Of a DNA stretch of 64,000 bases, positions 3,982-21,733 are shown piece by piece (the stretch's first letter is position 1; each line of letters begins with the position of its first letter). The DNA comes from Desulfatiglandaceae bacterium (GTDB lineage Bacteria; Desulfobacterota; DSM-4660; Desulfatiglandales; Desulfatiglandaceae), in assembly GCA_046498185.1 (NCBI GenBank), contig JAWOBE010000179.1:48583-112582 (forward strand). The letters run 5' to 3'. Position numbers and translations under genes: made by a program. Under the pieces are notes generated by a model. The model did not search any database. It was not told the DNA's origin and saw nothing but the letters and a program-made list of their open reading frames with translations.

Positions 3982-4181
3982 AATTGCCTCCAAACAGTTT
4001 TGAATAATCCGGCGGGAGTATTCACCCCCGCCGATGAGAATTCCCTTTTTGTCCTATCAACTTCGGATTCAGTATCGCAATCTGGGTCGAAAAAGCGGCA
4101 GCGTCAAACTTCGCTAGCGCTACCGACCCGGATAGCGACCTCGCCGAATCTTTATAGCAGTTGCTTTGTTATATTATAAAT

Positions 4182-4940
4182 CTATTTTGACGGTAAAAAA
4201 GCATCCAGCACCTTTCCCACTGCATCGAAAGCCTCACCTCGATTGATCACCCCACCGTCAAAACCCGCATCAAAAACCATTGGATCATTCGGAATCTTTC
4301 CAAGTATATCGATGTTCATTCCGTTCAATTCTTTATCGAGTTTTTCGGCGACCTGATCGGAAGGCACCTTGTTCAATACCGCATCAACAGCCTTGCCCAT
4401 TCCGCCTGCCAGCTCTTTTATCTTTTCGGCTACACGCAAGGACTCGTAGGAAGGCTCCACCACAATAATGACCCTGTCTATTCCCTCGTCGATCCCCCTT
4501 CCGAAATGTTCCACTCCGGCCTCCATATCTACAAACGTGACCATTTCGTTACCGGAGCGGAGTTTTTTCAAAAATTCCCGGCTCAACACACCCATCGGGC
4601 AGGCACAACCTTCAAGGGACTGTAGGATCTTTCCGATACTGACCAGAGACAATCCGTCTTTTCTTTCTATATAACTGGAAGGAATATCGTCGATCTCTAT
4701 TTCAGGCTGTTCAAAAATACTGGGCTGCTGCATATTTTTCTTAAGCGCGGATTTTCCTCCGACCATCTCCATTAAGGGGATCGGGGGCTTCTCAAAACCC
4801 AGCATCCTGAAAAGGCCGGAATTTGACTCATCTGAATCCACAACAAGAACTTTGAATCCGCGCTGTCGGGTCAAATTGGCAAGTAGTGTTACAACTGTGC
4901 TTTTTCCGCTTCCGCCTTTTCCACAAACTGATATTTTCAT
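4182..4940 (-). CDS. cooC: CooC-type P-loop NTPase (Ni-insertion / CODH maturation factor family)
   Basis: Has the deviant Walker A motif CGKGGSGKST and the CooC-type CxC motif (EGCACPMG). AGAGG RBS. Confidence 0.8.
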   Translation of the reverse strand: MKISVCGKGGSGKSTVVTLLANLTRQRGFKVLVVDSDESNSGLFRMLGFEKPPIPLMEMVGGKSALKKNMQQPSIFEQPEIEIDDIPSSYIERKDGLSLVSIGKILQSLEGCACPMGVLSREFLKKLRSGNEMVTFVDMEAGVEHFGRGIDEGIDRVIIVVEPSYESLRVAEKIKELAGGMGKAVDAVLNKVPSDQVAEKLDKELNGMNIDILGKIPNDPMVFDAGFDGGVINRGEAFDAVGKVLDAFLPSK

Positions 4941-4991
4941 AATTTAACCTCTGCTCATCTGGAAAATACCTTCTCCGTTCAGGTTCATATA

Positions 4992-5016
4992 TTGCGCCGC
5001 ATTTCCCGCGGCGCAA
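4992..5016 (-). other. Perfect 9-bp stem-loop (TTGCGCCGC-N7-GCGGCGCAA) between the ferredoxin and cooC genes
   Basis: Read directly from the sequence. There is no clear U-tract, so this is more likely an intercistronic stabiliser or attenuator than a strong terminator. Confidence 0.4.
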
Positions 5017-5040
5017 GGACAGCGGAAACTGCAGCGGATT

Positions 5041-5229
5041 TCATACCTCGGTGACGGTGATTGCATCATGTTCACAAACCTCTACACAGCTTTCACAACC
5101 AATGCATTCCTCTGCATTGACAGGTACAGATTTTTCGTCCTGGAGTTCATAAACATCCACAGGGCAAACATCAACGCATTCGCCGCAGCCTACACATTTT
5201 TCCTCATCTACTTCCGGTTTATAACCCAT
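5041..5229 (-). CDS. 2x[4Fe-4S] ferredoxin
   Basis: 62 aa with two CxxCxxCxxxCP motifs (CVGCGECVDVCP and CIGCESCVEVCE). Confidence 0.9.
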   Translation of the reverse strand: MGYKPEVDEEKCVGCGECVDVCPVDVYELQDEKSVPVNAEECIGCESCVEVCEHDAITVTEV

Positions 5230-5347
5230 TCGATTATCTCCTTTATAACATAATTGTTAAAATTTCCACATTCTACGCCTGCATCCGCCGAGTCCGGCTC
5301 CCCGCCCCCTACAACCGCTTCTTTACTCTTTACGGGGCCATCAATTT

Positions 5348-5851
5348 TCATTTCAAATTATAATGACATTCAGGCGGGATGCATAAGACAGGCCTCTTTA
5401 TGAATCTCAGGACTTTTTCCGTCGTGCTCCCGAAAAAAATCGCCTTCATGTCATCTGAATTCCCTTTGCTTCCCATTATGATCATATCTACGTCGTTCTC
5501 AACCGCCTTTTTGTTGATCTCGATACAAGGTGCACCTTCGCAGACAATCATTACCACGTCTTTTTCGTCAATCCCTTCGCTGAGGATAAAATCTTTGAGT
5601 CTTTTTTTTGAATTGATGAACACCTTCTTTTTAATATCACCACTCGTGCCTAAATTTTGTTGCACACAATGCTTGATAAAGTCCTGGTCTATAACATGTA
5701 GCGCCAGGATTTTCCCCCCGTTCACATCGATCCAGGATTTCCCCCGCCTTAAAGCCAGCCTCGAACAATGGGAGAAATCGATGGCCACCAACACACCTTT
5801 GCGTGTTGTATCCATGTGTCCGGCAGATCGCGGCTTTCGGTTCATTATCAT
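5348..5851 (-). CDS. Universal stress protein (UspA family)
   Basis: Shows the VLVAIDFS...MIIMGSKGNS...FFGSTTEKVLRFIKRPVLCI pattern. The true start may be the internal MDTTRKG (5815). Confidence 0.8.
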   Translation of the reverse strand: MIMNRKPRSAGHMDTTRKGVLVAIDFSHCSRLALRRGKSWIDVNGGKILALHVIDQDFIKHCVQQNLGTSGDIKKKVFINSKKRLKDFILSEGIDEKDVVMIVCEGAPCIEINKKAVENDVDMIIMGSKGNSDDMKAIFFGSTTEKVLRFIKRPVLCIPPECHYNLK

Positions 5852-5865
5852 GCACCCGGTTTATT

Positions 5866-6159
5866 TTAGACTTTTCGCAGCCTGACAGCTCCCCTGGGAC
5901 ACTGCTCGACACATCTCCTGCAACCGATGCATCGTTTTTCATCCACTACAGCGATGTCTCCTACCACAATGGCACTTACAGGGCACACTCTTTCGCAAAG
6001 CCCGCAGCCTATGCACGATTCAGAGTCAACAACCGCAATGTACCCCGGCCTTCCAACGTGCCCCTGGATTTCACGGATGCGCCCCTCAAGCAGATCGAGA
6101 CGTGCGCCGATCTCTTGTGCCCTGGCCTTCAGTAGATCCATTTCCGCTCTGGAATTCAT
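5866..6159 (-). CDS. Small 2x[4Fe-4S] ferredoxin with an N-terminal coiled-coil (DUF5320-like) segment
   Basis: Contains [12 protein letters not shown] and [12 protein letters not shown]. Its ATGA start overlaps the stop of the upstream NifX-like gene. Confidence 0.75.
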
Positions 6160-6518
6160 AAGATATCCGCTGCGCCTCCCCCCGCTTCACACCCCGGCAT
6201 TCGGAGGTCTTTTCTATAAACATCTCCTGCCAAAAAAGCCTCAAGCACTTCTTCGACAGGCCCTGCGACGAATGGCACAATTCTTATTCTACGCGCTTCG
6301 ATCAGACTTGCAAAAAAATCCGATATTCCTCCGCAGATCAAAATGTTGACGCCAAGTTCAGCAAGCCTTGCCACGCGTGAAAAAGCCAGCCCTTTCTCGA
6401 TCGGCTCGAAATGTTTCCTGACTTTACCGCTTTTTTCAATATCCGCAATAAGCAGCATGCCCGCGGAATCGAAAAGGGGCGATATACGGTTTTCCCAGAC
6501 AGTCAAAGCCACCTTCAT
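6156..6518 (-). CDS. NifB/NifX-family (dinitrogenase Fe-Mo cofactor-binding fold) protein
   Basis: 120 aa reading [28 protein letters not shown]...[11 protein letters not shown], typical of the NifX/NafY-like domain. Confidence 0.7.
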
Positions 6519-6547
6519 CCAAGAAATCCTCCATACTATAATTTATA

Positions 6548-6563
6548 GCAAAAAGCATGCCTA
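6548..6563 (-). promoter_or_regulatory. Sigma-54 (-24/-12) promoter candidate for the minus-strand gene string
   Basis: The minus strand reads TAGGCATGCTTTTTGCTA. GG and GC have the canonical 12-nt register of TGGCAC-N5-TTGCW. The -12 element lies 30 nt upstream of ATG 6518. Confidence 0.55.
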
Positions 6564-6695
6564 AGTTAGCGTTGAATCTGCTTATCAGTTTAATGATGTA
6601 TTTTTGAGTTGTTACAACCGGAAAGCATGAAGGGAAAGAAGTCATATAGTCTTATATATGCAACTCTATATGCTCCTACAGTCTCTGTTATGAGA

Positions 6696-8096
6696 CTATT
6701 CTTTAACTGTCGCCCTATATCGTCCGTCCTTTTCAGGGAGCTTTATCCCAAGCCTGTTGATTTTTCGATACAGGGTACTCTTATGAATTCCTAACTCACG
6801 GCTGGTGGCAAACCGATTGTAGCGATTGCGTTTCAGGGCATCCAGAATCACACGGGCTTCAGCTGTTTGCAGTGCGGTTGTTATGTTTGTTTCTGCAGGC
6901 CGCGAAGAAACAGCCGTGGAAAGATAATCCGGTAGACAGCGAACCTCAATACGGCCTTCGGGGCACAGCACGAAAGCATGTTCGATGATATTCTCGAGTT
7001 CCCTGATATTTCCGGGATAATTATGGAACATCAACAGCGAAACAGCTTCCTGGCTTATTCCTTCAACGGCTGTGCCTCGCAGCCGATTCAACTTATCTAT
7101 AAAATATTTGACCAGCATCGGAATATCTTCCTTCCGTTTACGCAATGGAGGAAGATCCAGGCACACTACATTTATTCGATAAAAAAGATCCTGCCTGAAC
7201 CCTCCGGTTTTCACAAGTTCAGAAAGGTCTTTGTTTGTAGCGGCAATTATTCGCACATCGGCTTCAACGGACACTGTCCCTCCGAGAGGCTGATATGTCT
7301 TTTCTTGAAGTACTCTCAATAGACGTGCCTGAAAAGCCCCACTCAGGTCACCGATTTCGTCGAGCAGAATAGTACCCCCTTCGGCAAGTGCGAAATGCCC
7401 GGGTTTATCCTTAGCGGCATCCGTGAAGGCCCCGGCCTTATATCCGAAAAGTTCAGATTCCAGCAATGTGTCCGGTAGCGCTCCACAATTGATAGCGACA
7501 AAAGGCTTATCGCGTCTCCGGCTCAGGTCGTGAATCGCCCTGGACATAAGTTCTTTGCCTGTTCCTGTTTCACCCTGAACCAAAACCGTGCTGTCGCTTC
7601 CCGCCACCTGCGGCAGAATACGAAAGATCCCGGCCATTGAAGAACTTCTGCTGACCATGTCTCCCAGTTGGTAGCGCCCTTCCAATTCTTTTCGCAATTC
7701 TTCAAGCTGGCTTATGTCCCGGAATGTTTCAACCCCGCCCAGCACCTTTCCCTTCTCATCTTTAAGCAATGAGGTGCATACCGTCACCGGAATCCGGCGC
7801 TTTCGGCTATCCACGATATACGTAGAAGTGTCCACCAAAGTTCTGCCTAGTTTCATCGTGCGCCGAAGCGCACAATCCGATTCGCACATATTAGAACGAA
7901 AAACCTCCCAACAGTGTTTACCCAGTGCCTTTTCCCGAGCAATTCCAGTAATTTTCTCCGCTGCGCCGTTGAATGAAGTCACGCGCCACTCATGATCCAC
8001 GGTGAAAACCCCGTCTGATATACTTTCAAGGATTATTTCCGTTACATGCGAAGGAATTCTATATCGATTGTTTCCCAGGTTCATCAATTTCATCAC
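6696..8096 (-). CDS. Sigma-54-dependent transcriptional activator (PAS - AAA+ - HTH; no receiver domain)
   Basis: Has a PAS-like N-terminus containing HCWEVFRSNMCESDC. AAA+ motifs are GETGTGKEL, GAFTDA (the GAFTGA loop) and ESELFGY. The C-terminus carries the HTH STLYRKINRLGI. Confidence 0.9.
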   Translation of the reverse strand: MMKLMNLGNNRYRIPSHVTEIILESISDGVFTVDHEWRVTSFNGAAEKITGIAREKALGKHCWEVFRSNMCESDCALRRTMKLGRTLVDTSTYIVDSRKRRIPVTVCTSLLKDEKGKVLGGVETFRDISQLEELRKELEGRYQLGDMVSRSSSMAGIFRILPQVAGSDSTVLVQGETGTGKELMSRAIHDLSRRRDKPFVAINCGALPDTLLESELFGYKAGAFTDAAKDKPGHFALAEGGTILLDEIGDLSGAFQARLLRVLQEKTYQPLGGTVSVEADVRIIAATNKDLSELVKTGGFRQDLFYRINVVCLDLPPLRKRKEDIPMLVKYFIDKLNRLRGTAVEGISQEAVSLLMFHNYPGNIRELENIIEHAFVLCPEGRIEVRCLPDYLSTAVSSRPAETNITTALQTAEARVILDALKRNRYNRFATSRELGIHKSTLYRKINRLGIKLPEKDGRYRATVKE

Positions 8097-8534
8097 CGTT
8101 ATCGACCTCGGATGGGCCTCTTCCGAAAGCGAACACCACCTTCATTCGGCACCGTCATAATAATCATCCCTGCCCCCAGGGACACGACCTCAGAGTCGTT
8201 ACTTGACCTGGTTTTCCGGCAATTCCATTTCAACCGGTCGGGATTATTTTAAAAATTTAGCATTTCCAGATGAACCCGGCAAGTACCAGCCGTCATTTGG
8301 AAAGCACAAAAGTATTGATGACAAAGGATACAACAACTGTTGCAAATGGCTACGCATGTCAAACATGCTGATATCACTAGTATTAAAGATAAAAGGCAAT
8401 TGAAAATCCCTCCGGACTGTAGCCGATTTAATCGATCGCCCGATTTTTTCCTTCAAAATAAATATCAGGGCCGGATGTTAAAATACGTTTCTTTTCAGTT
8501 ACCTGGATATGGGCCGGCCCCTTGGGGAACATCA

Positions 8535-8550
8535 TGGCATCAAGGTTGCA
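8535..8550 (+). promoter_or_regulatory. Sigma-54 (-24/-12) promoter candidate for the Hdr-like selenoprotein operon
   Basis: TGGCAT-CAAGG-TTGCA is a near-consensus match to TGGCAC-N5-TTGCW. It lies about 110 nt upstream of the RBS-supported ATG at 8660. Confidence 0.65.
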
Positions 8551-8659
8551 TTGTTAAAGTATACCCAATGACCCGGGGATGGCTTTGGGTCGAAACGACC
8601 GAGCCGCGAATCTCGTTGCGGAGGTTTTAATAGTGATCACTGCCTTCGGAGGAACAGCC

Positions 8660-9967
8660 ATGATACTTGAAAGAAAAACCAGCCGAACTGAAAGTAGAGG
8701 TATGGCGGGCTTGAATGTCATTGAGAAGCAGTGTGTCTGGATGAAAGCCGGTATCATCAACTTTCGAATTTGTGAAAAGAACTATGACTGCTTCCATTGT
8801 CCCTTCGATAGAGCCATGAGGGTCGCCATGGAGGCCCAGAATCCCCTGACCGGCACCAAACGGCCGCCCTCGTGGGCCCAAAAAATGCGAAAGACGTATT
8901 CCGGCGCTGAAAAGCCCTGCGTATATTATTTGAACGGCCGGGTCGGCCCTCCCGGAACCTGTCCCCGTGATTACCACTGTGAGGACTGCCCACTGGAAAT
9001 CGAACTCGGCTATAAGTCCGTGCAAAGGTCCATCGAGGCGGCCCGGTACTCTGCAGAATTGGATAAATCACATCGGGTAACCGGGTTTCAGGTCGTCGAA
9101 AATGAATGCGTATGGATGAAAGCCGGTATCGTGAGCTTCCGCCTCTGTGATAATAACTACGATTGCTACAATTGTGAATTCGACCGCAGCATGCGTCACG
9201 CAATGGAAGAAAAAAAAACCGCAGAAGTCCAGTCTTCTGAAGAAACGGCCGGGACACCGAAAATTGGTGTTGCGGCTCATCCATGCATTTACCACCTGAG
9301 TGGAAAAAGCGACGCACCGATAGAATGCAGCAGGGCCTATGAGTGTTATCGTTGCCCGGTTCACAGAACTTTGTCGAAAGGCATCGAAGTTAAGCCGGCA
9401 CCGATGAAACGGCCCGCTTATAAGACAGTGTCCGGCTTCGAAGTGGCCGACGGTTACTATTACCATTTCGGGCATACATGGGTTCACGTCATACATGGGG
9501 AATGCGTCCGGGTTGGGTTAGACGAATTTGTTGACAAAATTTTCGGCGCCCCGGACATCCTGGATCTTCCTCTGCCCGGCGCCCTTATCAAGCAGGCAAA
9601 GATCGGCTGTGTGCTGATGCGGGATGACCAGCGTGCGCCTGTTCTCTCGCCGCTTACAGGCAGGGTGTTGGCCGTGAACGACAAAGCCGTAAGAAAACCT
9701 GAAATTGTTCATGAAGATCCGTATCACGAGGGCTGGCTGTTTCAATTGGAACCTTCTTTCTTAAAACTTGAGACGCAGGGTCTTTATACGGGTCAACATA
9801 CTTTCGAATGGATGGAAAGAGAAAACCAACTGCTTCTTAAATTGCTCGGGCCATCCTATGAAAAATTGGCTGCAACCGGAGGAAAAATCGTTCCGGATCT
9901 TATCGGGGGTCTTCCCGAAATAGGCTGGGATGCACTGGTTGCGACCTTTTTGAGAACCAAAGCGTGA
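8660..9967 (+). CDS. Uncharacterised 16-Cys protein (four Cx12-13Cx5Cx2C motifs) with a C-terminal GcvH-like domain lacking the lipoyl-lysine
   Basis: I chose the start at ATG 8660 (GGAGGA 6 nt upstream) because the track start at 8579 sits too close to the promoter. The C-terminal half aligns gaplessly to GcvH (YYYHFGHTW...PLTGRVLAVN...DPYHEGWLFQLE). Confidence 0.8.
   Translation: MILERKTSRTESRGMAGLNVIEKQCVWMKAGIINFRICEKNYDCFHCPFDRAMRVAMEAQNPLTGTKRPPSWAQKMRKTYSGAEKPCVYYLNGRVGPPGTCPRDYHCEDCPLEIELGYKSVQRSIEAARYSAELDKSHRVTGFQVVENECVWMKAGIVSFRLCDNNYDCYNCEFDRSMRHAMEEKKTAEVQSSEETAGTPKIGVAAHPCIYHLSGKSDAPIECSRAYECYRCPVHRTLSKGIEVKPAPMKRPAYKTVSGFEVADGYYYHFGHTWVHVIHGECVRVGLDEFVDKIFGAPDILDLPLPGALIKQAKIGCVLMRDDQRAPVLSPLTGRVLAVNDKAVRKPEIVHEDPYHEGWLFQLEPSFLKLETQGLYTGQHTFEWMERENQLLLKLLGPSYEKLAATGGKIVPDLIGGLPEIGWDALVATFLRTKA
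8732..9355 (+). repeat. Intragenic tandem duplication: two about 85-aa 8-Cys modules with a 375-nt period
   Basis: CVWMKAGIINFRICEKNYDCFHC (starting at 8732) matches CVWMKAGIVSFRLCDNNYDCYNC (starting at 9107). The two copies share the exact 18-mer TGGATGAAAGCCGGTATC. Confidence 0.85.
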
Positions 9968-9991
9968 TAAATGTGAATGAAGGAGTTTCCC

Positions 9992-12900
9992 ATGAGTGAT
10001 CAAACCCTCGGATCGGTGATGGTTATCGGCGGTGGTATTTCCGGCATTCAGGCTTCGCTGGATCTTGCCGAGTCGGGTTATTATGTCCACCTTGTGGAAA
10101 AACAACCTGCGATCGGCGGTGTCATGAGTGCGCTCGACAAGACATTCCCCACCAATGAATGTGCGATGTGAATACTTTCACCTAAACTGGTCGAGGTCGG
10201 CCGGCATTTGAACATCGAGTTGCATACCCTTACCCAAGTAGAAAGCCTGGAGGGCGAAGCAGGAGCATTTACCGCAACGCTGCGGGAAAAACCCCGTTAT
10301 GTGGATGTCGACAAATGCATCGCTTGCGGACTGTGTGCTGAAAAGTGCCCTAAAAAGGTGGATGACGTTTTCAATGAGCACCTGAACAAACGAAAAGCCA
10401 TTTATGTGGAATATCCACAGGCAGTTCCACTCAAATATGCGATCGATGCTGAAAACTGCATCTATTTTCAAAAAGGCAAATGCCGGGCATGTGAAAAATT
10501 CTGTCCGGCCGGGGCCATTGATTTCACCCAGCGTGAACGCACGTTTACACTGGATGTGGGTTCGGTGGTGCTCTCATCGGGCGCAGAGCCTGCAGATCCA
10601 TCCAGCCTCGTTTTTTACGGCCACGGCCGATTTCCAAATGTAATCACAGCCATGCAGATGGAACGAATACTTAACGCAACCGGTCCTTACCAGGGGAGGC
10701 TCATCCGTCCCTCCGACGGTAGGGAGCCGGAGCGCATCGCATGGATACAATGCGTCGGTTCCCGGGATACGCATACCCCGGGGTCTACCGGTTATTGCTC
10801 CGGCGTTTGCTGCATGTATGCGGTGAAGGAAGCCACAATCGCCAAAGAGCATGCCGGCAAAAACCTTGATGCGGCCATTTTCTTCATGGACATGCGGACC
10901 CACGGCAAAGGTTTTGAGCGCTATTATCGACGGGCTGAAGATGACCTGGGAGTCCGCTTCATCCGCTCCCGCGTACATTCCGTCGTTCCCGCGGCCGATG
11001 GGTCGGATGACCTCAAAGTCGGCTACGTGGATGAAGCGGGCAATGCCATGGAAGAGCAGTTCCAGATGGTGGTTCTTTCTCACGGTCTCAAAGCCCCCCG
11101 GGAGATGCAGGCTTTAGCGGAAAGGCTTGATATCTCGATGAACACCGATGGTTTCATAGAAACCAGCAGCCTTAAACCGGTCGAAACATCGAGGCATGGG
11201 GTTTTTGTATGCGGCTGCGGCGCCAATCCAGTCGATATCCCCCAATCTGTGATGGAAGCATCCGCGGCCGCTTCGGCGTCCGCATCCCTTCTGTCCAAAT
11301 CCAGGAACACCTTGACTCGTCACAAGGAATATCCTCCTGAAACAAGTATCCAACCTGAAAAGATGCGAATAGGCGTTTTTGTCTGTCATTGCGGAATAAA
11401 CATCGGTGGCGTCGTCGATGTACCTGCGGTTCGGGACTACGCCCGTGAACTGCCGGGCGTCGTTTATGCCGGCGACAACCTTTTTTCCTGCAGCCAGGAC
11501 ACCCAACAGGCGATTCGCGATGCCATAGCAGAGCACAATTTGAATCGGGTGGTGATTGCGGCATGTACTCCCAGGACCCACGAACCGCTGTTTCAAGAAA
11601 CCATACGCGAAGCAGGTTTAAATCCATATCTGCTTGAATTCGCGAACATACGCGATCAAGACTCATGGGTTCACCAATCCCAACCCGAGGAAGCCACAAT
11701 AAAGGCTATGGATTTGGTCCGGATGGCGGTATCCAAGGTAGCGCTGTCGGAACCCGTCGATCGGTTGAAGCTGCCGGTCAATCCTTCGGCCCTTGTTGTC
11801 GGCGGGGGTCTTGCAGGCATGACAGCAGCGGTCCAGCTTGCTGACCAGGGCTTCCAGGTGTACATAATCGAAAAGACAGGCGTCCTGGGCGGGAATGCGA
11901 CCAGCATCAAAACCACCTGGGACGGAGGAGATGTCCAGGGCTACATGAAGGACCTGACAAAACGGATTGAAACGAACTCTCTCATAGAAGTCTTGCTGAA
12001 AAGCCGGATCGAATCTGTTTCAGGGTTCATCGGAAACTTTAAAACGGTTGTAAACACCGGTCAAGACCAACGCGAAGTCAGCCATGGTGCCGTCATCCTG
12101 GCAACGGGCGGAGATTATTACAGGCCTGAAGAATATCTCTATGCTACCGACGACAAGGTGACCTGTTGGCATGAGCTGGAAGATCTTTTTGAAAGGGAGC
12201 CCGAGCGGCTGGAAGACGCAGAATCCGTGGCATTTATACAGTGTGTGGGTTCCCGGGAACCGGATCGCCAGTACTGCTCACGCATCTGTTGCACATCTTC
12301 GCTTTTGCAGGCGATAGACTTAAAAACAAAAAAACCTCAACTGGACGTCTATATTCTGTACCGGGACATAAGAAGCTACGGACTCAGAGAGGAGCTCTAC
12401 CGGAAAGCGAGAGAAATCGGCGTGACGTTTTTCCGGTACACCCTCGATGAAAAGCCCCGGGTGGAAACGGGGGACAACGGCCGGCTTACAATTACCGTAA
12501 AGGACCATGTCCTGGGCTCTCCGGTAAGTTTTCAAGTAGATTATTTAAATCTTTTCACTGCGTTGGTTCCGCAGGGGGAAAATGAAATATCGAGGCTTTT
12601 CAAGGTACCGGTCAACGAAGACGGCTTCCTGCTCGAAGCTCATATGAAACTCAGGCCTGTTGATTTCTCGACTGATGGTGTTTTCCTATGCGGACTTGCG
12701 CATTACCCAAAACCGATCGAAGAATCCATCGCACAGGCGCAGGCTGCAGCCGCCCGTGCCGCCGGGGTGCTCACTCGGAAATTCATCGAGGTTGAACCTA
12801 TCGTCTCGGTCATTGATCAGGAAAAATGCATCGGGTGTGGTTTCTGCGAGGCTTCTTGTCCCTACGGGGCTGCACAGCTCGTCAAAGTGGAAGGCAAGGG

Positions 12901-13648
12901 ATTCAGAGCCGAAAGCAACCCGGCGCTTTGCAAAGGATGCGGAATTTGTGCCGCCGGTTGTCCCCAAAAGGCCATCGATATGCTTCATTTCCGCGACAGC
13001 CAGATTCTGGCTGCTGTCGAAGCAGGGGCGGAAAAGGTGCAGAGGATGAAAAAAACGGAGCTCGAAGTTCGAAAAAAATACAGCACATCGGGATCCGGCT
13101 ACCTGGTTGCCGACGATTACTATTATCATTCCGGACACACATGGGCGAAGCCCATCAAAGGCGGCCGCGTCCTGATCGGGGTGGATGATTTTGCGGGAAA
13201 AATTCTTGGAAAAGCCGACCGGCTGAACCTTCCGGAACCCGGAACCGTCTTGAAGCAGGATCGGCCGGGATGGTCTTTAAACCGTTCGGGCCGCCGGGCC
13301 GCCTTTCTTGCACCGGTAAGCGGACGGGTCTTCGCGGTCAACGAAAAGGTGGTAGCGAACCCTGAAATATTACTAAAAGACCCGTATGGTAAAGGATGGC
13401 TGCTCGTGCTCGAGCCTTCGCTTGTGAAGCCCAAAGAGATTGAAGCCCTTTACAGCGGAGATCAAAGCTTCCGATGGATCGAGAAAGAATTCCAGGCATT
13501 GCTGGATCTCATGGGGCCTCAACATGAACGGCTGGCCTCGACCGGAGGCGGTCCTATTGAAGACCTGTTCGACAAGTTCCCTGAAATTGGTTGGAAAAAG
13601 CTGGTTGGAACATTCTTAAAAACGACGGATGACCGGCCGGCCGATTAA
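9992..13648 (+). CDS. hdrA: Giant HdrA-like selenoprotein (two FAD/TrxR-like units, ferredoxin inserts, C-terminal GcvH-like module); Sec codon at 10169-10171
   Basis: The track splits this gene into 9977-10171 and 10208-13648, which share one frame. Read-through gives ...[24 protein letters not shown]..., the conserved HdrA Cys/Sec position. Other motifs are VIGGGISG and VVGGGLAGM (FAD), [17 protein letters not shown]...YCS..CC (twice) and several CxxCxxCxxxCP. AGGAG lies 7 nt before ATG 9992. Confidence 0.9.
10187..10204 (+). promoter_or_regulatory. Putative bacterial SECIS hairpin for hdrA-1
   Basis: Stem-loop CUGGUC-GAGGUC-GGCCGG starts 16 nt after the UGA. The apical loop contains GGUC. 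Confidence 0.6.
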
Positions 13649-13674
13649 CACACAGGCCCACGAAAGGTAAAAAA

Positions 13675-14427
13675 ATGACGGAAAAATTCAAACCACGAAT
13701 CCTGGCGTTTCTCTGCAATTGGTGCGCCTATGCAGGTGCAGACCTTGCCGGCGTTTCAAGGATACAATATCCGCCCACGATACGGGTGATACGGGTGATG
13801 TGCTCCGGCCGGGTCGATCCTGCTTTCATCGTCAATGGTCTTGCAAAGGGTTTTGACGGCGTGATGGTATCCGGGTGACACATCGGTGAGTGTCATTACC
13901 TGGATGGTAATGTTCATGCGGAAAAGGAAATGGAGATCGTTCGGTTCCTGTTGGACCTCTCCGGCATAGGTTCCGATCGTTTATTCATGCGGTGGGTCAG
14001 CGCCTCGGAAGGCGCCCAGTTCGCCGCCTACGTAAAGGAATTCAGCGAAACGGTGGAAAGACTCGGGCCGTTCATGCCTGGCGACTTTGAAATCCCACTG
14101 GCTGCTCTTGAAAGCACATTACATGCTCCGCGTTTGCGGTGGCTGACCGGAATGGAGATTAAAATTACCGAACAAGGCAATGTCTACCAGGAAAAAATTG
14201 ATAAGTCCGACTACCGGGACACCCTTGAAAGTGCAGCCCGCGAAGAATACGAAAAGGCCCTTGTGTTGGAATCGCTTCGCAGGGAGCACACCAGCGTCCG
14301 GGAAATCGCCATCGAAACGGGTATGCCCGTTTATACGGTCTCATGTCGACTTAATGAACTCGAAAGAGCCAGACTGGTGGAGTTGAAAACCTACCGGGGG
14401 AGCACCCCGGAATTCAGAGGAGCGTAG
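13675..14427 (+). CDS. mvhD: MvhD/FlpD-like selenoprotein fused to a C-terminal winged-helix-like domain; Sec codon at 13876-13878
   Basis: The track splits this gene into 13675-13878 and 13930-14427, which share one frame. Read-through gives ...GFDGVMVSG-U-HIGECHYLDGN..., which matches the GCHxGDCHY motif of MvhD. The N-terminus reads ILAFLCNWCAYAGADLAG. The C-terminal tail is VREIAIETGMPVYTVSCRLNELERARLVE. Confidence 0.85.
13894..13912 (+). promoter_or_regulatory. Putative bacterial SECIS hairpin for mvhD
   Basis: Perfect 7-bp stem CAUUACC-UGGAU-GGUAAUG starts 16 nt after the UGA. Confidence 0.6.
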
Positions 14428-14475
14428 GACAAAACATGCCGGGTCTACTTTTGATAGACCCTCTAGAGGTCAAAT

Positions 14476-17400
14476 ATGGATATAGCAGAGAAAAAAAATG
14501 ACAGAATAGGTTCGGTTATTGTGGTTGGAGCCGGGATTTCCGGCATGCAGTCGGCGCTCGATCTGGCAGGCTCCGGTTTTTATGTTTACCTGGTGGACAG
14601 CTCTCCCAGCATCGGTGGGATGATGGCGCAGCTGGACAAAACCTTCCCGACAAACGACTGTGCGATGTGAATCATCTCACCCAAGCTGGTCGAGGTCGGC
14701 CGCCATACAAATATAGAGGTGATCACCAATTCGGAAATCGACAAGCTGGAAGGAGAACAGGGCAACTTTCAGGTTACGCTTAAAAACAACCCGAGATTTA
14801 TAGATCCGACGGCATGCACGGGTTGTGGGCTCTGCAGCCAAGCCTGCCCGGTGACCGCAATCAATGAATTCGACTGCCGCCTTTCTCAAAGGTCGGCCGC
14901 TTTCATCCCCTATGCTCAAGCAGTACCGTTGGCCTACAGCATCGACCGCAAACGATGCATCGGCTGCGGTCTCTGTGAAAAAATCTGTCTGGCTGGCGCG
15001 GTCCAATACGACGACGCCCCGCGGGAAACACAGCTGAATGTCGGAGCGGTCGTCCTCGCCACCGGGAACCGGACCTTCGACCCGTCTGATCTCGACACCT
15101 ACAGATACAATGAGTGTCCGAATGTCATAACAAGCCTGGAGTTCGAGCGGATTCTCAATGCCTCCGGCCCCTATATGGGGCACCTGATGCGACCTTACGA
15201 CCGTGAGGAACCGCGCAAAATAGCCTGGATACAGTGCGTGGGTTCGAGAAGTCTCCAAAACGGGGCCAAGCCTTACTGTTCCTCGGTTTGCTGCATGTAC
15301 GCGGTGAAGGAGGCCGTGATCGCCAAGGAACATGCACATGGAGATCTCGACACCGCGGTGTTCTTTATGGACATGCGAACCTATGGAAAAGAATTCGAAC
15401 AGTACTATGAACGCGCCTCGCTCAAACACGGTGTGCGATTCATTCGTTCCCGCGTACACAGCGTGGACCCCGTCGGCGATGGGGACTTGAAAATTTCTTA
15501 TATCGAAGAAAACGGCGGAATTAAAAGCGAAACCTTCGATCTTGTCGTGCTATCGACGGGACTGGAAGTTTCACAGGTATCGGTGGATCTCGCAAACAAA
15601 CTCGGAGTGGATCTGAACGAAAATCGGTTCGCAAAAACCGACAGTTTCAAGCCGGTCGCCACGTCGGTCCCTGGCATTTATGTCTGTGGTGCCCTTCAGG
15701 GCCCTAAAGACATCCCTCAGTCTGTGACCGAGGCTTCCGCCGCCGCCGCCCTTTCCGGGGCGCTTTTGAGCGAGAGCCGCTGGAGCAAGTGTCGGGAAAT
15801 TGAATTGCCGGAAGAATCCAACGTGAAAGGAGAACCGCCGAGAATCGGCGTTTTCGTATGCCATTGCGGAATTAATATCAGCGGTGTTGTGGATGTCCCG
15901 GCCGTCCGCGACTATGCTCGGAGTCTCCCGTATGTGGTTTATGTCGAGGACAATCTGTACACCTGCTCTCAAGACACACAGATCAAAATGGCTGAGGTTA
16001 TACGCGAGCAGGGCATCAACCGCGTTGTCGTTGCCGCCTGTACACCCAAAACCCATGAACCCCTTTTTCAGGAAACCCTTCAAAATGCGGGGTTAAATAA
16101 ATATTTGTTCGAAATGGCCAACATCCGCAATCAGGATTCCTGGGTTCACAACAGGAACCCCCATTCCGCCACGGAAAAAGCCAAGGACCTGGTTCGAATG
16201 GCGGTCGCCAAGGCGGGGTTTCTCGAATCCCTTCCGGAAACAGAGCTTTCGTTGAACCCCGTCACGCTCATCATAGGCGGAGGGGTTGCCGGCCTTACGG
16301 CGGCTGAGAATCTGGCCGACCAGGGCTATAAAGTTCATCTGGTCGAGCGATCCGCCGAGTTGGGAGGACAGGCCAACTTTTTGTACAAAACCTGGAAGGG
16401 AGAAGACATAAAGGCCGGGCTCGATCGACTCATAGCCAGAGCAAAAAACCACCCGAATATAACGGCACATCTGGAAACGGAAGTCGTCCACGTCGATGGA
16501 TTTATAGGTAACTTTTCTTCGGTGCTGCGCAAAGCCGACGGCCACGAAAACACCCTCGAACATGGGGTCGCGATCATCGCGACAGGAGGAGAAGAATATA
16601 AACCCGATGAGTATCTTTACGGCAGCAACCCCGCGGTGGTAACCCACCTGGAGCTTGATCGACGATTCTCAACCGATGATCCGTCGATAACGGAACTTGG
16701 CAGCGCAGTCTTCATCCAGTGCGTGGGCTCCCGGCAGCCGGATCGCCCCTATTGCAGCAGGGTTTGCTGCACTCACACGGTAGAAAGTGCTCTTGAGCTG
16801 AAACGTCGAAACCCGGAGATCGAAGTTTACGTGCTCTACCGTGATATGCGGACTTATGGAGAACGGGAGGAATTATACAACCGCGCACGGGAACAGGGTG
16901 TCATATTTATCCGCTACGACCTGGAAAATAAGCCGGTATTCACGGAAAACGACGGAAGTCTCCAGGTCGAGGTGCACGATCCGATTCTTGGTTCAAAGAT
17001 CCTTCTCAGGCCGGATCTCGTCACCCTTGCCACAGCGGTTGTTCCTTCAGGTGGAAATGATTTGGCGAGCCTCTTCAAAATCAGCAAAGACGGAAGCGGT
17101 TTCTTCACAGAAGCACACGCAAAACTGAGGCCGGTCGATTTCGCCACAGACGGAGTCTTTCTCTGCGGACTGGCCCATTATCCCAAATCTCTGGATGAAA
17201 GCGTCGAACAGGCTCTTGCCGCAGCCGGGAGAGCTTCAGCTTGCCTGGCGGCTGCCAAGGTGATGGTGGGTGGTTCTGTGGCCGAAGTCAATCCGGCATT
17301 TTGCAGTCGATGCGGCATGTGCGTCGAGATCTGCCCTTTTGGAGCCGCCGGCTTTACAGAAGAAGGTTATGCGGCGATAAACGCCGCCCTGTGCAAAGGT

Positions 17401-17493
17401 TGTGGCCTTTGCACGGCATCCTGTAGAAGTGGCGCACTCACTCTCAAATGTTGCGATGATTCCCAGATAATGGCTATGATCGACCAGATGTGA
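14476..17493 (+). CDS. hdrA: Giant HdrA-like selenoprotein paralog (same tandem architecture, no GcvH-like module); Sec codon at 14668-14670
   Basis: The track splits this gene into 14476-14670 and 14719-17493, which share one frame. Read-through gives ...[24 protein letters not shown].... The protein is collinear with hdrA-1 up to the C-terminal ferredoxin domain. Confidence 0.9.
14686..14703 (+). promoter_or_regulatory. Putative bacterial SECIS hairpin for hdrA-2
   Basis: UGGUC-GAGGUC-GGCCG has the same position and loop as the hdrA-1 hairpin. The 17-mer CTGGTCGAGGTCGGCCG is identical between the two paralogs. Confidence 0.6.
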
Positions 17494-17594: not shown

Positions 17595-17623
17595 TTGACC
17601 GGCCGAGTCTCCTCGCTTATACT
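17595..17623 (+). promoter_or_regulatory. Sigma-70-type promoter candidate for the kinase/regulator pair
   Basis: TTGACC, a 17-nt spacer, then TATACT, about 70 nt upstream of ATG 17693. Confidence 0.5.
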
Positions 17624-17692: not shown

Positions 17693-19234
17693 ATGCCAGA
17701 GACTTTAAAACTGAACCTGGCTATCGTCGGTGGAGGCAAAACATGTCGCTACTTTTTGGAGCTCCTCCAGAAGAAAAACTATTTCCCGTATCTTTCGATC
17801 ACGATTTTTGGCGTATGTGATATTAACCCGGATGCCGAGGGCCTGCGCCTGGCCCGGGATCTCGGTATCACCACAACCAACGATTATCGCAGCATAATCA
17901 ACCTACCGAACTTGCACGGCGTCATAGAATTGACCAATGACCGCACGGTGCTTATGGACCTGATACGCCTTAGACCAAAAGGTGTCTGGGTCCTGGAACA
18001 TAACATCGGGCGTATGCTTCAAAGGCTGTTTCTCCTGGACGAGAAATTAAAAGCGAAGGATGATGAAGTCGCTCTCGAGCGCATGATTTCAGATATTCTG
18101 CTTCACCGGAGCAATGACCGCATCGTGTTGCTGGATCCCGATTTTCGAATTCTCGACGCCAATGATGGCTACCTTAAAGCGGTGTCTAAAAGTCGGGAAG
18201 AGGCTTTAGGAAAACCCTGCTACAATATTGTCTACGGATTCAATCTCCCCTGCCCCGAACTGCGACCAAGCATGAAATGCCCCATGCTGGAAACTCTGAG
18301 AACCGGCGACAGCACAAAAGTGATTCATGAAATCGTCGACGAGACAGGAGAACGGAACTATTGGAGCCTGGAAACCCATCCGGTGAAAGACCGGTCCGGC
18401 GAGGTGGTGAGGGTGATCGAAATCCGCAGGGACATCCCGGAAGAACTCCCCTCTCTATGGGAAAAACGCCTGCAGGAAGTCAAAACCGATCTGGGAAAAG
18501 TCGTTCAGGAAGACCGAATGCTTTCCCTGGGAAAACTTTCCGCCAGTTGTGCTCATGAAATCAACAACCCAATCCAGGGTCTCCTTACTTTTTCTCACCT
18601 GATAAAATCGATGCTCGATGAAGGAAAACCCACTGAAGAGGACCTGCAAAATTTCAAGGAGTTCATCGCATTGATGTGCAGTGAGCTGGAGCGTTGCGGG
18701 GATATAACATCCGGCTTGCTTTCCTTCGCCAGACAATCCCTGATGGCCGCGGCTGAAGTCGATTTGAACGAAGCACTTCGATCGGTCATAACCCTCGCAC
18801 GGCACCATATGGAACTACAGAATATCCGGCTCGAAATGAACCTATATCATGGAATGCTTACTATCAGAGGAGATATCAACCACTTGCAGCAATGCTTTTT
18901 GAACCTTGTCTTTAATGCGATAGAGGCAATGCCCGATGGGGGTAAATTAATTGTCACAACCGGTCTGGATGAAAAAAAACATCGTGCATCGATAATGATA
19001 AAAGACACTGGAACCGGAATCGACAAAGCAATAATCGACAGGATATTCGATCCCTTCTACACCACCAAATCACAGGGGAAAGGCACTGGACTGGGCCTGT
19101 CGATCGTTTACGGTATCGTCAAGGGCCATAAAGGGCTGATCAACATCGAAAGCGAAAAGGGTGAAGGCTCGGTGGTGACGGTGACATTTCCGGTGCTTTA
19201 CACCACCGGGAGTTCAGGAGACAACAATGAATGA
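17693..19234 (+). CDS. Cytoplasmic sensor histidine kinase (Rossmann-like N-domain - Cys-containing PAS - HisKA - HATPase)
   Basis: No transmembrane segments are evident. The N-terminus reads LAIVGGGKTCRYFLELL. The PAS domain contains GKPCYNIVYGFNLPCPELRPSMKCP. The H-box is SASCAHEINNP, and the ATPase G-boxes are DTGTGI and GTGLGLS. Confidence 0.85.
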   Translation: MPETLKLNLAIVGGGKTCRYFLELLQKKNYFPYLSITIFGVCDINPDAEGLRLARDLGITTTNDYRSIINLPNLHGVIELTNDRTVLMDLIRLRPKGVWVLEHNIGRMLQRLFLLDEKLKAKDDEVALERMISDILLHRSNDRIVLLDPDFRILDANDGYLKAVSKSREEALGKPCYNIVYGFNLPCPELRPSMKCPMLETLRTGDSTKVIHEIVDETGERNYWSLETHPVKDRSGEVVRVIEIRRDIPEELPSLWEKRLQEVKTDLGKVVQEDRMLSLGKLSASCAHEINNPIQGLLTFSHLIKSMLDEGKPTEEDLQNFKEFIALMCSELERCGDITSGLLSFARQSLMAAAEVDLNEALRSVITLARHHMELQNIRLEMNLYHGMLTIRGDINHLQQCFLNLVFNAIEAMPDGGKLIVTTGLDEKKHRASIMIKDTGTGIDKAIIDRIFDPFYTTKSQGKGTGLGLSIVYGIVKGHKGLINIESEKGEGSVVTVTFPVLYTTGSSGDNNE

Positions 19235-20573
19235 AAAATTCAGGCTCATGGTAGTGGACGACGAAAAAATCGTTCGGGAGTCACTTTACCACTGGTTCAA
19301 AAAGTCCGGCCACGTCGTAGAAACGGCGGCATCCGGTTTCGAGGCCCTCGAAAAACTTGAAAAAACACCCTTTGATCTGCTGTTCGTGGATATAAAGATG
19401 CCGATGATGAACGGTCTCGAACTGCTGGGAAAAGTAAAGGAAGAATACCCGGATACAATCGTCGTTATAATTACGGCCTACGGATCAATCGACAATGCTG
19501 TGCAGGCGATGAAAATGGGTGCCAGCGACTACCTGCTGAAACCTTTCAAACCGGACCAGATGTCGCTCCTGCTGGAAAAACTCGCCAATCAGAAACGCCT
19601 TGCCGAGAACTACCGTTATGTCAAAGGGGTTCTTGACGAACTCATCCGTTTCGACAATATCATTGGCCGGTCAAAACCGATGCAGCAGATATTCAATATC
19701 ATTCCCGAAGTGGCACAGTCAGATTCCGCCGTGCTCATCACCGGAGAAACCGGCACCGGAAAAGAACTGGTCGCCAAGGCCATTCATGCGAAAAGTCCTC
19801 GGGCTCACGGACCGTTTATCGCTATCAACTGCGGAGCAATGCCGGAAACATTGCTCGAAACCGAGTTGTTCGGTCACCGGAAAGGGGCTTTCACCGGTGC
19901 GAATCAAAACAGGAAAGGCTTCCTGGAAGTCGTGTCCGGCGGAACGCTCTTTCTGGATGAAATTGGCGAAATAAGCCCCAAAATGCAAGTAGACCTTCTG
20001 CGCGTGCTGGAAGAAAAGGAAGTCATCCGGGTAGGAGACAGGGAGCCGATCACCGTGGACTTCCGACTGGTTTCCTCGACATGCAGAAAACTTGATGAGG
20101 AGGTGAAAGCCGGCAATTTCCGTGAAGATTTCTTTTACCGGATAAACGTTATCACAATCCCCATCCCGCCGCTCCGTGAAAGAAAAGAGGACATCCCCCT
20201 GCTGGTCGAGCATTTCTTGAACAAATACAGCCATGAAACCACCAAAAAGGTGGACAAAACCACGGCCGAAGCCTTGGCCTTTCTAAAGAGTTATGATTGG
20301 CCGGGTAATGTCAGGGAGCTCGAGAATGCTATTGAACGTGCAGTTGTACTTTCCAAGTCCAGGACCCTCGGTGTAGATTCTTTTTCTTTTCTGCAGCCTG
20401 CTAGAACCGGATACAAAACCCGCCGCACACTTCGCGAGATGGAAAAAGATTATATAGAAGAAACCCTGGAACACCAGAACTGGAACGTGACCCGCTCCGC
20501 TGAAATCCTTGGTATCAACCGGGTCACGCTTCACAAGATGATCAAAAGGTATAACATTGAACGAACCCGGTAA
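19227..20573 (+). CDS. NtrC-family sigma-54-dependent response regulator (REC - AAA+ - HTH)
   Basis: The receiver domain shows DLLFVDIKMP. AAA+ motifs are GETGTGKEL, GAFTGA and ETELFGH. The C-terminus carries the HTH AEILGINRVTLHKMIK. It overlaps the kinase gene by 8 nt. Confidence 0.9.
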   Translation: MNEKFRLMVVDDEKIVRESLYHWFKKSGHVVETAASGFEALEKLEKTPFDLLFVDIKMPMMNGLELLGKVKEEYPDTIVVIITAYGSIDNAVQAMKMGASDYLLKPFKPDQMSLLLEKLANQKRLAENYRYVKGVLDELIRFDNIIGRSKPMQQIFNIIPEVAQSDSAVLITGETGTGKELVAKAIHAKSPRAHGPFIAINCGAMPETLLETELFGHRKGAFTGANQNRKGFLEVVSGGTLFLDEIGEISPKMQVDLLRVLEEKEVIRVGDREPITVDFRLVSSTCRKLDEEVKAGNFREDFFYRINVITIPIPPLRERKEDIPLLVEHFLNKYSHETTKKVDKTTAEALAFLKSYDWPGNVRELENAIERAVVLSKSRTLGVDSFSFLQPARTGYKTRRTLREMEKDYIEETLEHQNWNVTRSAEILGINRVTLHKMIKRYNIERTR

Positions 20574-20594
20574 TTTCCGGTAAGGCTGGTTTTT

Positions 20595-21152
20595 ATGTCG
20601 GGCATAAAGGCTCGTGTGGGGATCATGGCATTCGGCTCGCCGCCGGCGGAAGTTCTCCGGTCTATCGCGGAAGCTGTTCCGGTTCATTTCGGTATGCCGG
20701 TGGAAATCCTTCCCCCGGTCAAAACTCCATCCTATGCATTCGACCCTGCGAGAATTCAATATAACGCTGTATCGATCATCGAAAATATCGAAGCGATGAA
20801 ATTTCCTCCGGACCTAAAGATCCTTGGAGTTTTGACCGTGGATCTTTTCCTTCCGGTTTTCACTCATGTTTTCGGGGAAGCCCGGCAAGGGGGAAACTGC
20901 GCTTTGGTTTCGCTGCACCGGCTTGGTCACGACGCCGGGAGTTCCCTTACATCCCCCGCATCCATCAGTAAAAGGACCACAAAGGTGGCCCTTCATGAAC
21001 TCGGCCACCTCTTTAACATAGTCCATTGTTTCGACCGCTGCTGCCTGATGCATTTCTCAATGGATCTTGATGAGCTGGACTGTATACCGGTTGAATTCTG
21101 CCGCTACTGCAAAGCTTTTTTGGATGAGTCAATCAAGCAGTTTCGCAAATGA
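20595..21152 (+). CDS. Archaemetzincin-like zinc metallopeptidase (M54)
   Basis: Contains the HELGHLFNIVHC...CCLMH motif (HExxHxxGxxH plus a Cys cluster). Confidence 0.7.
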   Translation: MSGIKARVGIMAFGSPPAEVLRSIAEAVPVHFGMPVEILPPVKTPSYAFDPARIQYNAVSIIENIEAMKFPPDLKILGVLTVDLFLPVFTHVFGEARQGGNCALVSLHRLGHDAGSSLTSPASISKRTTKVALHELGHLFNIVHCFDRCCLMHFSMDLDELDCIPVEFCRYCKAFLDESIKQFRK

Positions 21153-21711: not shown

Positions 21712-21733
21712 AATCTCCTCCTTTATCAAAATA

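Follow-up and report, generated by a model that had tools for sequence, protein, structure and literature searches.

Flavin-based electron bifurcation in anaerobes is carried out mainly by HdrA/MvhD cores. Sulfate reducers and syntrophs carry many HdrA/MvhD paralogues, and to our knowledge most of them have no assigned reaction. Here we describe a four-gene operon encoding such a core in a Desulfatiglandaceae bacterium (GenBank assembly GCA_046498185.1, contig JAWOBE010000179.1, positions 48,583 to 112,582 of the forward strand). This whole stretch of 64,000 nucleotides (nt) is called the window below, and the operon with its promoter occupies positions 8535-17493. The core itself belongs to a known type. 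Specific to the operon are its first gene, here called gene 1, and a homologous GcvH-like tail on the first of its two HdrA proteins, HdrA-1. In the reading that we favour, to which we give about an even chance, the operon encodes a sigma-54-regulated, BamEF-like bifurcating core together with a non-catalytic GcvH-like docking or adaptor module.

Several described systems resemble parts of this operon. In the cryo-electron microscopy structure of class II benzoyl-CoA reductase, BamE is a fused HdrA dimer, with the bifurcating flavin adenine dinucleotide (FAD) in a first thioredoxin reductase-like unit (TrxR1; Lys280, Cys59-Cys62) and a non-bifurcating FAD in a second one (TrxR2), and BamF is a long MvhD that exceeds the usual length by more than 100 residues and touches BamI with its winged helix-turn-helix (HTH) (bioRxiv 10.64898/2026.04.10.717634). 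The HdrABC-MvhAGD and Fdh-Hdr complexes of methanogens (PDB 5ODC, 7BKB and 8RVU) share with our operon the HdrA domains and cluster motifs, the MvhD [2Fe-2S] adaptor and the positions of selenocysteine (Sec) or Cys. The HdrA/HdrL-MvhD loci of Desulfobacterium autotrophicum HRM2 and Desulfococcus multivorans likewise pair Sec-containing HdrA and MvhD without a hydrogenase, in this case in Desulfobacteraceae. Neither gene 1 nor the GcvH-like tail nor a linkage to genes for a histidine kinase, response regulator and M54 peptidase is described in the genome papers on these loci. Finally, in the sHdr-LbpA system a GcvH-fold protein is genetically tied to Hdr-like proteins (PMC6067878), and this is the sole GcvH-like/Hdr-like link that our literature search found. 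The search found no published description of the core combined with gene 1, the tail and this regulatory trio.

The four genes are all on the + strand: gene 1 (8660-9967; 435 amino acids, aa), HdrA-1 (9992-13648; 1218 aa), an MvhD/FlpD [2Fe-2S] adaptor (13675-14427; 250 aa) and HdrA-2 (14476-17493; 1005 aa). These open reading frames (ORFs) translate as given in a preliminary description of this DNA, and the gaps between them, which it had put at 24-48 nt, measure 24, 26 and 48 nt. Shine-Dalgarno-like sequences are found ahead of every gene. The gene-1 start at 8660 is favoured over an alternative ATG at 8579, because GGAGG lies 6 nt upstream of it and the closest homologue starts at the same Met. 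Pfam searches gave GCV_H for gene 1 and the C-terminus of HdrA-1, FlpD for the third gene and Pyr_redox_2/Fer4 for both HdrA proteins, in line with the domains first proposed. The gene-1 family comprises 228 clusters at E <= 1e-3 in a protein search. In species-representative genomes 519 loci were confirmed, and 80 of them, nearly all from Desulfobacterales, Desulfatiglandales and related metagenome-assembled genomes, were retrieved for neighbourhood analysis by a tblastn map and ORF clustering; these loci and others are numbered with an L below. The four-gene synteny, for which a survey of relatives had been suggested, recurs at no fewer than nine other loci, which belong to several lineages: gene 1, tailed HdrA-1, winged-helix MvhD and HdrA-2 occur together. 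These orthologous operons are usually followed, as in the window, by genes for a histidine kinase, an NtrC-type regulator and an M54 peptidase.

The promoter proposed at 8535 stood up to a search of the window. The -24/-12 element TGGCAT-N5-TTGCA (TGGCATCAAGGTTGCA; 8535-8550, +) is the sole match to TGGCAY-N5-TTGCW on both strands of the 64 kb, where 0.12 matches would be expected by chance. It has the -24 GG and -12 GC with 10-nt spacing, adjoins the gene of an enhancer-binding protein and is conserved in orthologues. The element lies 110 nt ahead of the gene-1 ATG (8660), in a 563-nt gap between gene 1 and the divergent gene of this protein. Among the homologues, 58 out of 92 gene-1-family ORFs have a similar sigma-54 site within 350 nt on their 5' side, where the background of 0.0985 sites per kb per strand predicts about 0.04 per ORF. 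From the site, the neighbouring enhancer-binding protein and the conservation, the promoter is predicted to depend on RpoN. The divergent gene (6696-8096, -) encodes a PAS and sigma-54 AAA+ activator with a Fis-type HTH (Pfam Sigma54_activat 9.7e-66, PAS_9 and HTH_8), and its orthologues (57-62% identity) adjoin gene-1 homologues in L015, L016 and L036. This protein is a candidate for activating the promoter at 8535. Between the two genes a single inverted repeat was found, TTTCCAGATGA-N19-TCATTTGGAAA (8263-8303); it lies about 235-270 nt 5' of the -24/-12 element and is a possible binding site for the activator. A tie to the AOR/CooC cluster further upstream was considered and rejected, since that cluster is on the opposite strand and is not conserved beside orthologous operons.

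Pfam and motif mapping show that HdrA-1 consists of TrxR1 (with a CAMU motif, an inserted ferredoxin and Lys279), TrxR2, a C-terminal 2x[4Fe-4S] ferredoxin and the GcvH-like tail with its helical extension (aa ~1044-1218; 13121-13645, +; GCV_H E 3.5e-18). Two FAD sites, two IQCVGSR...CC cluster motifs and three ferredoxin motifs were found. HdrA-2, mapped in the same way, does not have the GcvH tail. When compared with the canonical HdrA 8rvu_a (phmmer E 5e-205), HdrA-2 aligns in three permuted pieces that cover all domains: residues 446-625 match the N-domain, 14-363 the TrxR with its inserted ferredoxin, and 824-1003 the C-terminal part and ferredoxin. There are therefore two TrxR units in each HdrA protein. 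The CxxU pair is confined to TrxR1 (residues 57/60 in HdrA-1 and 62/65 in HdrA-2), and the flavin-side Lys of the motif CCMYAVKEA (K279 and K278, respectively) is also present in TrxR1 only, TrxR2 reading CCTSSLLQA or CCTHTVESA. Each protein has only two FAD GxGxxG motifs and no NAD(P)H module. Both had been called tandem HdrA proteins. Two units per chain are indeed present, but the second is not the complete HdrA unit that was claimed, as the ferredoxin insertion is missing from it and neither the CxxC/U motif nor the flavin-side Lys is present. Judged from sequence, both halves taken together make up one HdrA dimer, fused and permuted, and both proteins combine the features of HdrA with the fused-dimer organisation described for BamE.

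The third gene product was confirmed as a Sec-containing MvhD with a winged-helix tail by its FlpD match (E 5e-51), by the TGA codon discussed below and by the model of a 63%-identical homologue (pLDDT 88), from which the fold was read. Its sequence matches 7bkb_F and 5odc_D. The first 130 residues of the model superpose on MvhD (TMt 0.83-0.88), and the remainder, a helical and winged-helix tail of about 115 aa, resembles Zalpha (TMt 0.90) and also ArsR/SmtB. Weak Pfam matches of the tail to MarR_2 and ArsR (HTH_5) agree with this. The protein belongs to a large family of ~252-aa proteins and, with FlpD and an extension of more than 100 aa that is modelled to end in a winged HTH, it matches the long MvhD of the BamF type.

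All three in-frame stops of HdrA-1, MvhD and HdrA-2 are TGA, and both HdrA genes proved to have the codon in the frames claimed for them. The codons are at 10169-10171 in HdrA-1 (Sec60), 13876-13878 in MvhD (Sec68) and 14668-14670 in HdrA-2 (Sec65), all on the + strand. The HdrA codon aligns with the second Cys of DCSMC-IL in solved HdrA; this alignment was made with HdrA-2, and HdrA-1 shares the FPTNxCAM-U motif. The MvhD codon aligns with the Cys of SGC-H in solved MvhD, and at least 90% of 36 homologues have Cys at this position. Across the 80 related loci the HdrA motif codon is TGA in 22 cases and TGC/TGT in 9, and the MvhD motif codon is TGA in 8 and TGY in 6. In the orthologous operons the codon is TGA in every case in which the motif was found; for MvhD these are seven operons besides that of the window. 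Each codon is followed by a hairpin resembling a selenocysteine insertion sequence (SECIS), at 10187-10204 in HdrA-1 (CTGGTCGAGGTCGGCCG), 13894-13912 in MvhD (CATTACC-N5-GGTAATG) and 14686-14703 in HdrA-2. The HdrA element (17 nt, from 18 nt past the TGA) forms a 7-bp hairpin that is invariant in 14 sequences, synonymous sites included; the one exception is the final base of its closing pair, shared by 12 of the 14. The neighbouring codons vary freely in the same alignment. In the MvhD hairpin the inner six stem pairs are invariant and the loop is variable (7 sequences). Folding of the single sequences 3' of each TGA was not significant (z = -0.5 to -1.3), so that the comparative alignments alone are informative here, and the only match in an Rfam scan was tRNA. 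The window also contains a selA equivalog, L-seryl-tRNA(Sec) selenium transferase (41387-42856, +; 627.6 bits, cut-off 267.9), beside a tRNA-His gene (41277-41352, -), which supports Sec decoding by the organism. Selenoprotein forms of HdrA, MvhD, BamE and BamF are documented in Desulfobacteraceae and Geobacter. HdrA-1, MvhD and HdrA-2, with UGA at a Cys position, a SECIS-type hairpin and selA in the window, are thus predicted to be selenoproteins in the same way.

The Lys and CxxU found only in TrxR1, together with the winged-helix MvhD, make the core BamE/BamF-like in architecture. The tandem HdrA and the winged-helix MvhD are therefore not new (bioRxiv 10.64898/2026.04.10.717634). Our operon shares with BamEF of Geobacter metallireducens (BamBCDEFGHI) the fused HdrA dimer with the TrxR1 pair and Lys, the long winged-HTH MvhD and the use of Sec. 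However, the Bam system has a CCG protein (BamD) and the BamBC tungsten enzyme, neither of which is encoded in the operon. Moreover, Bam has one BamE gene where the window has two distinct BamE-like genes, and Sec is residue 19 of BamF, whereas here it is found in the CxxU of HdrA and at residue 68 of MvhD. Gene 1 and the GcvH-like tail are additional to Bam. As there is no CCG or AOR gene in the operon, it does not encode a class II benzoyl-CoA reductase. Compared with the methanogen complexes, HdrA is duplicated and permuted, HdrB/HdrC, hydrogenase and formate dehydrogenase are missing, and the system is bacterial and predicted to be sigma-54 regulated. No HdrB (2 CCG), HdrC or [NiFe] hydrogenase is encoded between 6 and 25 kb, which sets the locus apart from HdrABC-MvhAGD. 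The preliminary description was right that no CCG, hydrogenase, formate dehydrogenase or Flx gene occurs between 8 and 21 kb and that the sole CCG protein of the window, at 48 kb, is a fusion with an FAD oxidase (48015-50675, FAD-oxidase/Fer4_8/CCG).

The same core is found in other settings. An HdrA-MvhD-HdrA triad with the winged-helix MvhD (~1040/252/1003 aa; MvhD 53-60% identical to that of the window) lies in Desulfobacca acetoxidans (L084) between two MTHFR genes and a DUF5981 (MetV-type) gene. In another complete genome (L086) the triad is followed by genes for a short MvhD, Fe-S proteins, an FNR-like NAD(P)H flavoprotein, an HdrC-like protein and a CCG protein. These MetF/MetV and Flx/HdrBC-like operons have recognisable substrate modules but no gene 1 and no GcvH-like tail, whereas our operon has no MTHFR/MetV, FlxA (FNR-like NAD(P)H) or HdrBC genes. 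Relatives of the operon itself have gained further modules. In Desulfatiglandales orthologues (L001), NuoE-like and NuoF-like genes are inserted and a NuoG-type N-terminus (Fer2_4 and Fer4) is fused to HdrA-1, an arrangement reminiscent of BamG/H/I. In the L006 lineage a GltD/NfnB-like insertion (Fer4_20 and Pyr_redox_2) is found within HdrA-1, like the HdrL-type NAD(P)H-binding insertions of D. autotrophicum HRM2 and D. multivorans. These added NAD(P)H modules indicate that the core is used as a redox hub. The complex had been called uncharacterised and devoid of known partners; the operon itself does lack HdrBC, hydrogenase, formate dehydrogenase and Flx, but its relatives add known input modules (NuoEF-like and GltD-like). 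In two of the Desulfatiglandales loci (L001 and L009, ~11360-11775) a Sec-containing remnant or mini-protein of ~130 aa lies between gene 1 and the NuoE-like gene. It corresponds to the part of HdrA with the first FAD-binding strand, the CxxU pair and the first of the ferredoxin motifs, as though the NuoEF/NuoG-N insertion had split HdrA-1.

Gene 1, present here where no usual substrate module is encoded, consists of two 8-Cys modules (aa 25-110 and 150-232) followed by a GcvH-fold domain and a helical extension of ~65 aa (aa ~262-435; Pfam GCV_H at aa 267-384, E 3e-14). The 16 Cys first reported are those of the four C-X12-13-C-X5-C-X2-C motifs; the protein has 18 in total, and the GcvH-like domain was correctly recognised. 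Across the family, between 0 and 3 Cys modules with eight invariant Cys apiece precede the GcvH-like domain and the conserved extension of ~65 residues. The module number is evolutionarily labile, as one homologue of 605 aa has three modules (L005 9397-11214), and in other loci a second gene for a Cys-free GcvH-like domain with extension directly follows gene 1 (e.g. L022 10966-11745). The GcvH part of gene 1 is modelled by AlphaFold2 with pLDDT above 90 and matches GcvH structures with TM 0.88-0.91 (1onl_A 0.88). The HdrA-1 tail is 51% identical to the gene-1 C-terminus.

A GcvH fold suggests a carrier of lipoate or of another swinging arm, similar to LbpA, or a substrate of lipoamide disulfide reduction. 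Here the fold is truly that of GcvH, and an obligatory GcvH-like partner of Hdr-like complexes has a precedent (PMC6067878). However, the alignments put Asp of gene 1 and Gly of the HdrA-1 tail at the lipoyl-Lys position, and among 75 homologues this column is G31 D17 N7 S6 E4 K4 A3 H2, with Lys in only four. LbpA proteins, in contrast, share a strictly conserved Lys and have dedicated lipoate ligases (PMC6067878). The sHdr clusters also contain HdrB/C CCG subunits and the neighbours shdrC1B1AHC2B2, while no CCG subunits, CCG-type sHdrB or lipoate ligase genes were seen at the window locus. The GcvH-like domains score 54.8 and 48.4 bits against NCBIfam gcvH and not_gcvH, far below the cut-offs of 117 and 115.85, so that membership in either family was rejected together with the lipoate carrier. 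Without the Lys, the GcvH-like domains of gene 1 and of the HdrA-1 tail are predicted to be incapable of lipoylation, and we consider a carrier function very improbable indeed.

The Cys modules could instead mean that gene 1 is a new Fe-S subunit, which transfers electrons or reduces disulfides and serves as the high-potential output in place of HdrBC/BamD. Such a function would agree with the 16 invariant Cys in repeated modules, with a module number of 0-3 as in polyferredoxin-type wires, and with the position of gene 1, which is that of the substrate modules in other triad operons. Yet C-X12-13-C-X5-C-X2-C is not a known cluster motif, and no Fer4 or CCG family was matched by Pfam in 20 modules. 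The only resemblance found there was to zf-CHY (PF05495), below threshold, in 12 of the 20 (best 23.9 bits, gathering score 31.3). Neither a sequence profile nor a Foldseek fold search gave a PDB match for the modules. In addition, most family members are encoded without any redox enzyme. The modules thus weakly resemble CHY zinc fingers and appear zinc-finger-like rather than Fe-S-like, and the Fe-S subunit is improbable in our view. Gene 1 and the tail had been proposed as a substrate-side or docking module. With GcvH-like domains that are predicted not to be lipoylated and zinc-finger-like Cys modules, an HdrBC-like, substrate-side catalytic role is unlikely; the docking half of the proposal agrees with the linkage to tailed HdrA and the redox fusions described next.

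Every gene-1 homologue with two or more Cys modules has HdrA directly behind it (10 of 10), and this HdrA carries the GcvH-like tail in every locus where its end is visible. Tails of the HdrA-1 type were seen only in these gene-1/HdrA operons. An exhaustive HMMER search with a profile of the GcvH-like domain and its extension gave 60 representatives below 1e-30. Beyond gene-1-like proteins, its matches include many membrane-anchored proteins of ~230 aa and several fusions: to Fer4, FlpD (MvhD) and Molydop_binding; to FAD-oxidase/Fer4_8/CCG, with three GcvH-like domains ahead (P0171); and to cytochrome c7. The fusions to MvhD, FAD-oxidase/CCG and cytochrome c7 fit a docking or partner role. P0171 is a homologue of the FAD-oxidase/Fer4_8/2xCCG protein of the window, whose gene is the first of a series at 48015-52829 (+); next come genes for a D-component like that of 2-hydroxyacyl-CoA dehydratase (HGD-D) and a BcrAD/BadFG-type activator ATPase, and then those for an acyl-CoA ligase and a thiolase.

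In the docking reading, the operon would produce, under sigma-54 control, a soluble flavin-based bifurcating or confurcating core of the BamE/BamF type. Each fused double HdrA would hold one bifurcation-type FAD, in TrxR1, beside the Cys-x-x-Sec pair and the conserved Lys, while the TrxR2 unit would be structural. Like (BamE)2, HdrA-1 and HdrA-2 together probably form a pseudo-tetrameric core. The long MvhD ([2Fe-2S], Sec68) would relay electrons to the flavin and offer its winged-helix tail as a docking surface, and the C-terminal ferredoxin domains would couple the core to ferredoxin, the only partner that can be deduced from the window. The catalytic output module of other systems (HdrBC/BamD, MetFV, Flx or hydrogenase) would be replaced by gene 1 and the homologous HdrA-1 tail. 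We infer that the GcvH-fold domain and its helical extension act as a protein-protein adaptor, leading from the core to the gene-1 Cys modules and from there to a redox or regulatory partner. Expression may be set by the adjacent PAS activator, by the cytoplasmic histidine kinase and NtrC pair encoded downstream, or by both.

The main alternative arises from these downstream genes. The first encodes a cytoplasmic PAS histidine kinase (17693-19234, +; Pfam PAS_4, HisKA and HATPase_c; no transmembrane segment visible), the second an NtrC-type response regulator and sigma-54 activator (19227-20573, +; Response_reg, Sigma54_activat 6.9e-69 and HTH_8), conserved beside gene-1 homologues, and the third an archaemetzincin-like M54 Zn-metallopeptidase with the motif HELGHxxxxxHC (20595-21152, +; Peptidase_M54 1.1e-15; 130.6 bits against NCBIfam archmetzin, cut-off 145). 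A sigma-70-like promoter (17595-17623) precedes this operon (17693-21152). We know of no function assigned to archaemetzincin-like M54 peptidases in bacteria, and our literature search found no published account of an association between archaemetzincin and a sigma-54 system. The kinase begins with an unassigned Rossmann-like region of ~130 residues (VGGGKT) and has a cysteine pattern, CYN...PCP...KCP, in its PAS domain; it may sense redox state or a cofactor. Convergent with the peptidase gene are genes for a DUF1318 protein (21169-21729, -) and, beyond it, a 1038-aa ORF without a Pfam or NCBIfam match (21734-24850, -). About a quarter of the gene-1 loci have other Hdr clusters within 10 kb, mostly on the opposite strand: HdrA with HdrB-like, HdrC-like and FrhB-like genes and a short MvhD, HdrL-type proteins, and membrane HdrD-like proteins.

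The trio of histidine kinase, NtrC-type regulator and M54 peptidase adjoins the gene-1 homologue, usually convergently, in 62 out of 81 loci. Gene 1 may accordingly be a sigma-54-dependent effector or feedback component of this signalling system, a redox-sensitive Cys/Zn connector and possibly a substrate of the M54 peptidase. The HdrA-MvhD-HdrA genes would then have been placed behind the gene-1 promoter in this lineage, with the HdrA-1 tail reaching the same signalling partner. The sigma-54 sites ahead of many homologues and the zinc-finger-like modules agree with such a role, and the trio also stands beside other GcvH-like proteins in the Calditrichia/KSB1-type contigs described below. A signalling role of this kind would not explain why gene 1 with several Cys modules is always accompanied by the tailed HdrA, here across a 24-nt gap. 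Nor would it account for the presence of the GcvH-like domain and extension in fusions with MvhD, FAD-oxidase/CCG and cytochrome c7 and in the company of NrfCD-like membrane modules, which indicates a place within redox complexes. We regard the signalling role as unlikely, although it is the strongest rival of the docking module; the lipoate-carrier and Fe-S-subunit readings are weak.

Several points weigh against the docking module. Among the single-module homologues with enough flanking sequence (n=62), HdrA is next to gene 1 in only two, so that the gene-1 family is not an Hdr partner in general; most homologues are monocistronic and adjoin the regulatory trio rather than HdrA. In two Calditrichia/KSB1-type loci the GcvH-like domain is fused to receiver domains, where it may serve signalling and not electron transfer. 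The binding of gene 1 to the HdrA proteins is deduced from the genes, and co-transcription of the four genes from their spacing. The likeness to BamE and BamF was judged from the description in the preprint. Finally, as the operon is encoded, ferredoxin is the only evident donor or acceptor, and a three-way bifurcation reaction cannot be written.

The lipoate-free GcvH-like domain extends beyond Desulfobacterota. The membrane-anchored proteins of the profile search occur in Calditrichia/KSB1-type contigs. In three such loci (L088, L089 and L090; ~4000-11500) we found a GcvH-like protein (221 aa), a Tat-Fer4_11 protein, an NrfD-like protein (called in L089 and L090, two of the three) and an HmcD-like anchor fused to a GcvH-like domain with its extension; the anchor has the precomputed Pfam assignment PF28260 'DVU_0533'. 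A HAMP histidine kinase, a sigma-54 response regulator and a Peptidase_M54 protein come directly next. The Response_reg-GCV_H fusions occur twice in each of two loci (L089 11922-12719 and 12748-13917; L088 1272-2132 and 2313-3482). A strict sigma-54 scan of the Calditrichia-type loci gave no site 5' of the GcvH-like genes. The same regulatory trio beside GcvH-like proteins shows that the link between the lipoate-free domain and the trio crosses phyla. In all, the domain was found attached to zinc-finger-like repeats, HdrA, MvhD, receiver domains, HmcD-like anchors beside NrfCD-type modules, and cytochrome c7. We tentatively consider it possible that the lipoate-free GcvH fold with its extension is an unrecognised docking or signalling domain, which defines trio-controlled redox modules across Desulfobacterota, Calditrichia and KSB1 and, in the operon described here, tethers the BamEF-type core through pairing of GcvH domains.

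The fused-double-HdrA/long-MvhD core thus appears as a portable three-gene unit that is paired with varied modules. In one widespread combination a lipoate-free GcvH-like domain takes the place of any known substrate module, and this GcvH-like family is tightly tied to a sigma-54 two-component system and an archaemetzincin-like peptidase. If the docking role is correct, the GcvH-like domain would give a handle on how orphan bifurcating cores find their partners, and it would point to a first role for bacterial M54 peptidases. If the domain moreover tethers the core by GcvH-domain pairing, it would represent a new way to plug bifurcating cores into cellular redox networks.

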